From IMG/VR virus record IMGVR_UViG_2700989162_000007: DNA of 6,064 bases; one strand, written 5' to 3'. The translations under genes and the position numbers were made by a program. Source of the DNA: a virus. Taxonomy: Duplodnaviria > Heunggongvirae > Uroviricota > Caudoviricetes. Under the pieces are notes generated by a model that did not search any database, was not told the DNA's origin, and saw only the letters and a list, made by a program, of their open reading frames with translations. Positions 2,697-2,785 of the stretch are shown here, piece after piece. Each line of letters starts with the position of its first letter. The first letter of the stretch is position 1.

Positions 2697-2785
2697 TTTA
2701 AGCTGTGTGGCGAAGCAACCACTCTTAACAGAATATCCCGTTTTTTACGTACGTAAAATATTTTCTAGAAAGTCGCCCCTTACCA
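2697..2785 (-). promoter_or_regulatory. expected location of late promoter PR' and Q-utilisation (qut) site; contains a 16-bp perfect palindrome
   Basis: Non-coding interval between the Q stop (2786-2788) and the terminator hairpin. AT-rich, with -10-like hexamers (TATTTT, TAAAAA) and the palindrome TTTTACGTACGTAAAA at 2743-2758. Exact -35/-10 elements could not be assigned with confidence. Confidence 0.3.

Follow-up and report, generated by a model that had tools for sequence, protein, structure and literature searches.

A 16-bp palindrome in the late promoter of an Escherichia coli prophage is a candidate dyad-symmetric binding element for the Q antiterminator

The palindrome and the late promoter region

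Q-dependent antitermination is the switch for lysis and, in Shiga toxin (Stx) phages, for toxin production. Here, we analyzed a 6064-bp stretch of viral DNA (IMG/VR record IMGVR_UViG_2700989162_000007; hereafter, the window), which is part of a lambda-like prophage of Escherichia coli, and examined a perfect 16-bp palindrome, TTTTACGTACGTAAAA, located at positions 2743-2758 between the gene of the antiterminator Q and the late terminator. Comparison with related phages suggests that this palindrome is the binding element of the cognate Q protein within the late promoter, PR'.

All genes of the window are on the minus strand and, read in that direction, encode a replication loader, a DnaB-type helicase, NinH and Q, followed by the intergenic region, four tRNA genes, a phage 21-type class II holin, a 209-aa open reading frame (ORF), a lysozyme and an Rz-like gene. 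The arrangement is that of a late cassette, with the Q gene directly upstream, a sigma-70 promoter recognizable by homology, and an intrinsic terminator followed by the holin and lysozyme genes. The Q gene (2786..3166, minus strand) encodes a QuuD/Q933-like antiterminator of the Q21 family (Pfam PF06530, E = 5.8e-54; 'antiterminator Q family protein' in RefSeq), the family being that defined by Yin et al. (PMC9388147). Its stop codon, placed at 2786 in the preliminary description of this DNA, is indeed the TGA at 2788-2786; at the other end, RefSeq starts a 126-aa protein at MRDIQ, and the mechanical ORF reaches back to a TTG at 3202. The 621 bp across Q and the intergenic region are 100% identical to nine complete genomes, for example, CFSAN029787.

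The palindrome reads the same on both strands: a repeat search returned the arms 2743-2750 and 2751-2758 with 100% complementarity and no gap, and the element cannot be extended, the flanking bases 2742 and 2759 being T and T. It occurs once in the window, even with two mismatches allowed. Under a first-order Markov model of the window, 0.086 perfect 16-bp palindromes are expected per 6 kb (P of at least one, 0.08), and in the Q-to-terminator interval, with 75 possible positions and the local composition, only about 0.0015. The preliminary description was therefore right both in placing a perfect palindrome between Q and the late terminator and in considering it unlikely to arise by chance in so short an interval. 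Nevertheless, the window holds two perfect 16-bp palindromes against the 0.086 expected. The second, AAGGGATTAATCCCTT (3058-3073), lies within the Q coding sequence (codons K-G-L-I-P) and is perfect only in the allele of this prophage, being broken in relatives at synonymous third-codon positions (for example, AAGGGACTGATCCCC); it looks like a coincidence aided by the complementarity of the Gly GGN and Pro CCN codons. Because this second palindrome appears coincidental, palindromy by itself is weak evidence, and the case for the intergenic element has to be made from comparative data. Two further 10-bp palindromes, AAAATATTTT and TTTCTAGAAA, lie in an AT-rich stretch (2755-2771) and share bases with each other and with the upstream end of the main palindrome. 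An RNA hairpin or terminator at 2743-2758 was considered and rejected, given the weak fold (-2.4 kcal/mol, z = -0.3) and the position of the site upstream of the PR' start.

A simple consensus scan of the window for promoters and terminators called neither PR' nor its terminator, the PR' hexamers matching the consensus at just 8 of 12 positions; PR' was therefore assigned from homology. The minus strand of this region has the sequence TGA(Q stop)...TTTCTAGAAAATA-TTTTACGTACGTAAAA-AACGGGA-TATTCT-GTTAAG-A-GTGGTTGCTTCGCCACACAGCTT-AAACCCGCC-TCCG-GGCGGGTTTTTTATG. The hexamers, which the preliminary description had left unassigned, could be placed through the pR' annotation of phage 933W and the mapped start of the Sakai prophage Sp5. 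By this homology, the window PR' consists of a -35 hexamer TTTACG (2757-2752) that coincides with the left half-site of the palindrome, a 16-bp spacer, the first part of which is the right half of the palindrome and an A-tract, a -10 hexamer TATTCT (2735-2730), and a predicted start near A2723, all on the minus strand. The -35 hexamer and the 16-bp spacing are those of 933W pR'; at the -10, TAnnnT is kept in all related promoters, with TATCAT in 933W and Sp5. Thus, the palindrome falls within the PR'/Q-utilization (qut) interval, as had been proposed, covering -35 to -20 of PR'.

The start of Sakai Sp5 PR' has been mapped by differential RNA sequencing, giving a 258-nt RNA from PR' to tR' and an RNase E cut, GU|AUU, at +173 (Sy et al. 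2020, PMC7547250). In the Sp5 sequence, taking the A located 7 nt after TATCAT as the start reproduces both the 258 nt and the +173 exactly, and the alignment of the window to the 933W/Sp5 promoter with this mapped start places the window start near A2723. In this homologue, the start lies downstream of the palindrome, so that the palindrome is not within the transcript; a start placing it there, with no effect of palindrome mutations on Q-dependent read-through, was the outcome that the preliminary description had named as refuting its proposal.

An A6 tract (2741..2746, minus strand) overlaps and continues past the promoter-proximal half-site, and an A4-7 or A/T tract is found here in every class of related promoters described below. 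Upstream of the promoter, the AT-rich stretch TTTCTAGAAAATA (2759..2771, minus strand), which contains the two overlapping 10-bp palindromes, may be a UP-like A-tract or bent-DNA region; an A-tract at about -45 to -38 is found again in most related promoters. With TTTACG, the 16-bp spacer with its A-tract, TAnnnT, and the start region TAAGAGTGG, the window has the full set of features of a 933W/DLP12-type pR'.

Downstream of the start, a small conserved 5' leader hairpin, GUGGU-N6-GCCAC (2707..2722, minus strand), is predicted, with the same fold predicted in the 933W leader. The terminator hairpin given as 2681-2696 in the preliminary description is present but slightly larger: the intrinsic terminator tR' (2675..2699, minus strand), conserved in relatives, has a full 9-bp stem, AAACCCGCC/GGCGGGTTT (2699-2691 / 2686-2678), with a GC core CCCGCC/GGCGGG, a TCCG loop at 2690-2687, and a T6 run at 2680-2675, the first three T of which also close the stem. 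The minimum free energy of the leader is -24.4 kcal/mol (z = -4.1). In the absence of Q, the transcript would be about 50 nt from start to terminator, with the tRNA and lysis genes beyond it.

The invariant TAAGAGTGG across the start site (2719..2727, minus strand) is a candidate sigma-dependent pause element, as suggested by invariant alignment columns and by its alignment with TAAGCTG of phage 21. More broadly, the start region GTTAAGAGTGG (2719-2729), together with the following GTGGTTnCTTCGCCAC hairpin, is nearly invariant over all Q classes in about 200 loci. The start region aligns with the phage 21 pause segment TATTC-N3-TAAG, with the mapped start of the 933W type falling within this segment and not ahead of it. 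The sole universally conserved -10-like sequence, (T)AAGAGT at -4 to +3, straddles the start and aligns with the phage 21 pause element; a pause induced by TAAGAGT would come early, at about +9 to +13. Two other pause candidates were rejected for lack of conservation, namely, TACATT (+7 to +12 in 933W), in place of which the window has TGCTTC, and CAGCTT at +19.

Homology to the intergenic stretch starts at the palindrome and continues through the terminator. In a megablast search against phages, only the Q coding region was matched, in two records, and the intergenic homology appeared only with blastn at word size 11. In the latter search, the promoter module was matched in 3918 of the 5426 complete E. 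coli genomes and in 381 phage records, Stx phages and the K-12 cryptic prophage DLP12 being among them; many of these matches start further downstream and cover only the shared start region and terminator, without the palindrome.

Palindrome classes and their pairing with Q

About 200 related loci were gathered from IMG/VR and annotated phages using the anchors GTTAAGAGTGGTTNCTT and GATAAGAGTGGTTNC, which represent the invariant start region; the scan with GATAAGAGTGGTTNC produced mostly chance matches (in 83 of about 120 rows, the downstream context was not the one expected). In these loci, we identified at least seven classes of palindromes that occupy a single slot, centered at -27.5/-28, upstream of the A-tract and the conserved TAnnnT -10: TTTACG-(TA/AT)-CGTAAA (class A, with TTTACAATCGTAAA as A'), GCGTACGC (B), GCGGTCCGC (C), TGGAATTCCA (D), TGTAATTACA (G), TGTTATAACA (E), and ATTCGTTACGAAT (F). 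Dyad arms of at least 4 bp are present in 78 of the 88 distinct related promoters, always centered at -27.5 or -28, and any other dyad center between -60 and -5 is found in at most 8% of the 88. Members of a class share an invariant palindrome and A-tract but differ in the upstream flank and in the spacer at -17 to -13; in class A, both arms, TTTAC and GTAAA, are invariant. A direct-repeat arrangement (ACGT-ACGT, ACGC-N2-ACGC) was also considered and rejected, as no repeat period is common to the classes, whereas dyad symmetry is.

The palindrome class corresponds one-to-one, without exception, to the cluster of the nearest upstream PF06530 protein in two tabulations, of 99 and 87 loci. This pairing holds with Q ending anywhere from 6 to 2462 bp before the promoter and with differing flanks, and persists where 0.6-2.5 kb has been inserted between the two; the palindromes of classes D and G begin 6-24 bp after the Q stop. 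Furthermore, the palindrome class tracks the C-terminal helix-turn-helix domain of Q and not its N-terminal half. The Q proteins of class E have an N-terminal domain up to 96% identical to that of class A, joined to a class D/G-like C-terminal domain, and the class E palindrome resembles those of classes D and G. With an N-terminus close to the QuuD/933W type and a helix-turn-helix domain similar to the phiP27 type, these proteins look like natural recombinants, which would mean that recombination took place within Q, close to the CxDDD motif.

Each class has its own predicted recognition helix, which is conserved among the members of the class, for example, CSDGTIRKELQ in class B, KDEKLIRIEIQ in class C, and ISHTQVLKRLQ in class D. 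The A' palindrome was found in E. coli PhiR40_1 and in Yersinia, and the two share the helix variant SDC-x-(I/V)GRLLQ. In a retrieval led by class A Q proteins from Yersinia, Enterobacter, Pantoea, and Trabulsiella, which is independent of the DNA start-region anchor, each 6.4-kb locus contained exactly one TTTAC-N4-GTAAA, located downstream of Q and followed by an A-tract, a -10, and TAAGAGTGG. Because the different palindromes of related phages each match the DNA-reading helix of their own Q, we consider the palindrome of the window to be the probable site of the Q encoded beside it.

An alternative to be weighed against this covariation is that the palindrome is nothing but a -35 hexamer and spacer, that the pairing arises from linked descent of Q and PR', and that the Q site is elsewhere, for example, at the putative 'qut' that the 933W record marks at +8 to +15, leaving the palindrome unmarked. 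Indeed, Q and PR' are adjacent in many loci, and the second palindrome in the window appears to be coincidental. We nevertheless regard this explanation as improbable. It does not account for the palindromic character, at one and the same center, of at least seven different sequences, or for their conservation where neighboring promoter positions vary. It is also at odds with the survival of the pairing through the insertions between Q and PR', and with class E, in which the N-terminal domain of Q is uncoupled from the palindrome class. Moreover, the first transcribed bases, among them those at the 933W 'qut' position, are nearly alike in all classes and are altered in the window (GGTTGCTTC), and therefore cannot carry Q specificity.

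Another possibility, raised in the preliminary description, is that the palindrome serves as the operator through which a dimeric regulator other than Q, of host or phage origin, represses or activates the late promoter. A perfect dyad over the -35 does have the classic look of a repressor operator. Such operators, however, would be expected to keep a constant site whatever the Q type, usually in more than one copy, and here we found a single copy, both in the window and in each locus retrieved from other genera, and a sequence that changes with the Q class, where a host factor would need constancy. The 6-24-bp spacing in classes D and G, taken together with class E, leaves the C-terminal domain of Q as the only shared coding determinant nearby. 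We therefore consider a separate regulator highly improbable. The class-specific variation likewise disfavors the earlier suggestion of a site related to restriction or modification, whereas the suggestion that the palindrome is the site of a dimeric protein, or part of the Q-binding element (QBE), is the one favored by the comparative evidence.

The Q protein, its proposed binding mode, and the genes downstream

The window Q is a distant homologue of Q21 (phmmer against the Q21 sequence in PDB, E = 3.8e-8). In the AlphaFold2 model, helices span residues 47-63 and 65-76, and a helix-turn-helix is formed by residues 81-88 and 92-112; the mean predicted local distance difference test (pLDDT) score is 68, rising to about 80 in the C-terminal half. 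A Foldseek search of the PDB with this model retrieved Q21 as the best match, followed by region 4 domains of extracytoplasmic function (ECF) sigma factors, with E-values of 3e-3 or weaker. Pfam matches of the C-terminus to helix-turn-helix and Sigma70_r4 families cover the same residues, although all are below threshold and serve as hints only. Compared with the window Q, the helix-turn-helix region of Q21 is interrupted by about 20 inserted residues, a loop that contacts the minor groove and the neighboring protomer on the tandem repeat. This insertion is missing from the window Q in the alignment, and the model is a plain helix-turn-helix, not the interrupted helix-turn[loop]-helix of the Q21 type.

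Taken together, these observations suggest, with a probability that we put at about 0.68, that the palindrome (2743..2758) is the cognate QBE in PR', read as two inverted TTTACG half-sites by the sigma region 4-like helix-turn-helix domains of two head-to-head Q subunits. In this mechanism, transcripts initiated without Q would stop about 50 nt after the start at the hairpin 2699-2675. When Q is present, two subunits would dock head-to-head on the inverted half-sites via their C-terminal helix-turn-helix domains and engage the RNA polymerase held near the promoter. The Q-modified polymerase would become terminator-resistant and read into the tRNA and lysis genes.

Several points weigh against this interpretation. 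The evidence for Q acting on TTTTACGTACGTAAAA is comparative throughout, and both the identity of Q as the binding protein and the symmetric binding of two subunits are inferred. Given the physical linkage of Q and its promoter, common descent could account for some of the covariation, a concern that the domain swap and the variable flanks lessen without removing it. The sole relative with a solved structure, Q21, binds a direct repeat and not a dyad, and the model of Q is of the moderate quality given above, with weak Foldseek E-values. The perfect dyad spans just 8-9 bp in classes B and C (GCG-TA-CGC, GCGG-T-CCGC), a length that leaves little room for two helix-turn-helix subunits, unless the half-sites reach beyond it in an asymmetric way. 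The A' variant, TTTACAATCGTAAA, is not symmetric, and the variants within classes hit the distal half or the center, hinting that the halves are not equivalent. Finally, no sequence downstream of the start is clearly a sigma-dependent pause element, and the invariant TAAGAGTGG straddles +1.

The apparent inequality of the halves bears on a different mode of binding, in which a single Q subunit reads only the proximal half-site and the A-tract (CGTAAAAAA), with the distal half serving as the -35 or as a low-affinity helper. The proximal half and the A-tract never vary within classes, the variants being distal or central (TTTACAAT..., GCGTTCCGC, and GCGCACGC), and the distal half of class A doubles as a 4/6 match to the -35 consensus; in Q21, too, the two subsites differ in affinity, and the nozzle is formed by just one protomer. 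Yet the distal half in classes B to G is not -35-like and still mirrors the proximal half, dyad arms are retained at one center in the large majority of the distinct promoters (the 78 of 88 above), and in class A, the distal arm is as invariant as the proximal one. We therefore consider binding of a single subunit unlikely, and symmetric binding of two Q subunits remains the preferred interpretation.

In a broader generalization, Q933/QuuD-like proteins would form a distinct, loop-less subgroup of the Q21 family that binds in head-to-head pairs to dyads centered at about -27.5, the recognition helix defining at least seven interchangeable classes of specificity; on this proposition, we are evenly divided.

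The genes that would be read from PR' include, between tR' and the holin gene, four tRNA genes (2276..2586, minus strand) with the anticodons CAT, Arg-TCT, Thr-TGT, and Gly-TCC, the CAT tRNA being named Ile by RefSeq and Met by ARAGORN. A promoter scan identified a promoter-like site, TTTGCA-18-TATTAT (2596..2625, minus strand), ahead of the tRNA genes, in a place equivalent to that of the annotated pT of 933W. The first late protein-coding gene encodes the class II holin (1768..1983, minus strand; PF04971, E = 5.5e-35). The 209-aa ORF between holin and lysozyme (1135-1764, minus strand) is an unusual insertion in the lysis cassette; it had no Pfam match and matched only PHROGs of unknown function (phrog_1085, E = 1e-73). 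In the part of the lysis region that lies downstream of the lysozyme gene, positions 422-531 are 110 masked N, and the ORFs across them are artefacts. Outside the window, at 6870-7404 of the CFSAN029787 locus, the lysis cassette is followed by a ParD-like/ParE toxin-antitoxin pair and a KilA-N protein.

Comparison with known Q systems

The promoter itself is already known, being annotated in 933W and with its start mapped in Sakai. Literature searches, which did not cover older subscription papers (Neely and Friedman 1998; papers on the DLP12 and phage 82/21 promoters), returned no description of a QBE for Q933, H-19B, or QuuD or of class-specific palindromes. A dyad-symmetric QBE in the Q21 family would be specific, widespread, and relevant to Shiga toxin regulation, although not a new principle. 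If the broader generalization above holds, there would be a readable Q-to-promoter code that predicts which Q activates which late or Shiga toxin operon in E. coli carrying multiple prophages. If the palindrome is the Q site, q alleles and late promoters could be sorted into compatibility classes from sequence alone, with a bearing on cross-activation of co-resident prophages and on q-typing of Shiga toxin-producing E. coli. In this context, a 2023 paper reported an Stx2a prophage with a Q 47.6% identical to Q933 that 'lacked the late promoter PR'' and had 'an altered qut site' (PMC10562709). Judging by the class B and C promoters, our analysis suggests that in such prophages, described as having no PR' because the 933W promoter sequence is not matched, a PR' with a palindrome of a different class is probably present.

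Among the closest known systems are the late promoters of the 933W type. The pR' of 933W, H-19B, and Sakai Sp5 resembles that of the window in the -35 TTTACG, the 16-bp spacer, the A-tract, TAnnnT, and TAAGAGTGG, with Q proteins 87% identical. The 933W annotation (Plunkett 1999) gives pR' as TTTACG-16-TATCAT, and a 14-bp palindrome, TTTACGATCGTAAA, is located at the same position. It has the same half-sites and differs in the central dinucleotide (TTTACG-AT-CGTAAA versus TTTACG-TA-CGTAAA) and in length (14 versus 16 bp). The regions downstream differ: in 933W and Sp5, the hairpin matching the window terminator is weaker, and the 258-nt RNA ends at a second terminator about 200 nt further on (1727-1749 and 1930-1958 of the 933W locus, respectively), whereas the window, similarly to phage 21, has a single strong terminator at most about 50 nt from the start, followed by tRNA and lysis genes without stx. 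The possibility that the conserved leader is the small RNA StxS was rejected because Sakai StxS-S is the 3' end of the 258-nt transcript at the second terminator, which is absent from the window, as is the StxS region.

In DLP12 of E. coli K-12, the palindrome core TTTACGTACGTAAA, the A-tract, a -10 TATGCT, the start region, and the terminator are located about 120 bp upstream of essD, and the recognition helix of QuuD is the same as in class A. DLP12 differs in having the nmpC porin gene (about 1.67 kb) between quuD and the promoter and in having no tRNA genes.

To our knowledge, Q binding sites have been defined experimentally only for lambda Q and Q21. Phage 21 pR' (Yin, Kaelber and Ebright 2019; GenBank OL657228), the Q of which belongs to PF06530, as does the window Q, has the same layout as the window, namely, Q, the promoter, a leader of about 50 nt to the terminator, tRNAs, and a class II holin, with parts that are experimentally defined. 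These comprise TTGACA, a QBE consisting of the direct repeat ATTGAGCA + AATGAGCA, the -10, the start, the pause element TAAGCTG, and a 48-nt terminator region directly after the start, ahead of the tRNAs and the S21 holin. In the alignment that the preliminary description had called for, with phage 21 and Stx-phage PR' regions, 933W pR' matches the window, and the phage 21 QBE falls in nearly the same slot as the palindrome. Specifically, phage 21 TATTCGCATAAGCTG aligns with window TATTCTGTTAAGAGTG, and relative to the shared TATTC-N3-TAAG, a 16-bp element lies upstream in both, the phage 21 QBE at 20 to 5 nt and the window palindrome at 23 to 8 nt, a 3-bp offset. The window promoter is about 5-6 bp further downstream than that of phage 21 relative to the shared segment, the 933W-type TATxxT being itself the -10. 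Because the hexamers are placed differently, TAAGCTG of phage 21 (+2 to +8) corresponds to TAAGAGT straddling +1. The phage 21 QBE lies between a consensus -35 and the -10, whereas the window element is an inverted repeat overlapping the -35, and the two tandem 8-bp direct subsites of a Q21-type QBE are not found in it. The window element is thus not a QBE of the Q21 type, although it probably works like one.

In lambda PR', the Q site lies between the -35 and the -10, with a promoter-proximal pause and a downstream terminator, as here. Lambda Q belongs to the unrelated family PF03589 and binds as an extended monomer to an asymmetric 13-bp site (PMC9388147). The structural resemblance of the window Q to ECF sigma region 4 bound to -35 DNA (for example, PDB 2H27) amounts to a root-mean-square deviation of about 2 Å over 60-70 residues, with a target-normalized TM-score of 0.73-0.76. 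Sigma region 4, however, reads one asymmetric hexamer within the holoenzyme, whereas two inverted half-sites are proposed here. If the palindrome is indeed the Q site, the Q933/QuuD group uses a different, symmetric site; on the broader generalization above, this would be a third QBE architecture beside the asymmetric monomer site of lambda Q and the direct repeat of Q21.

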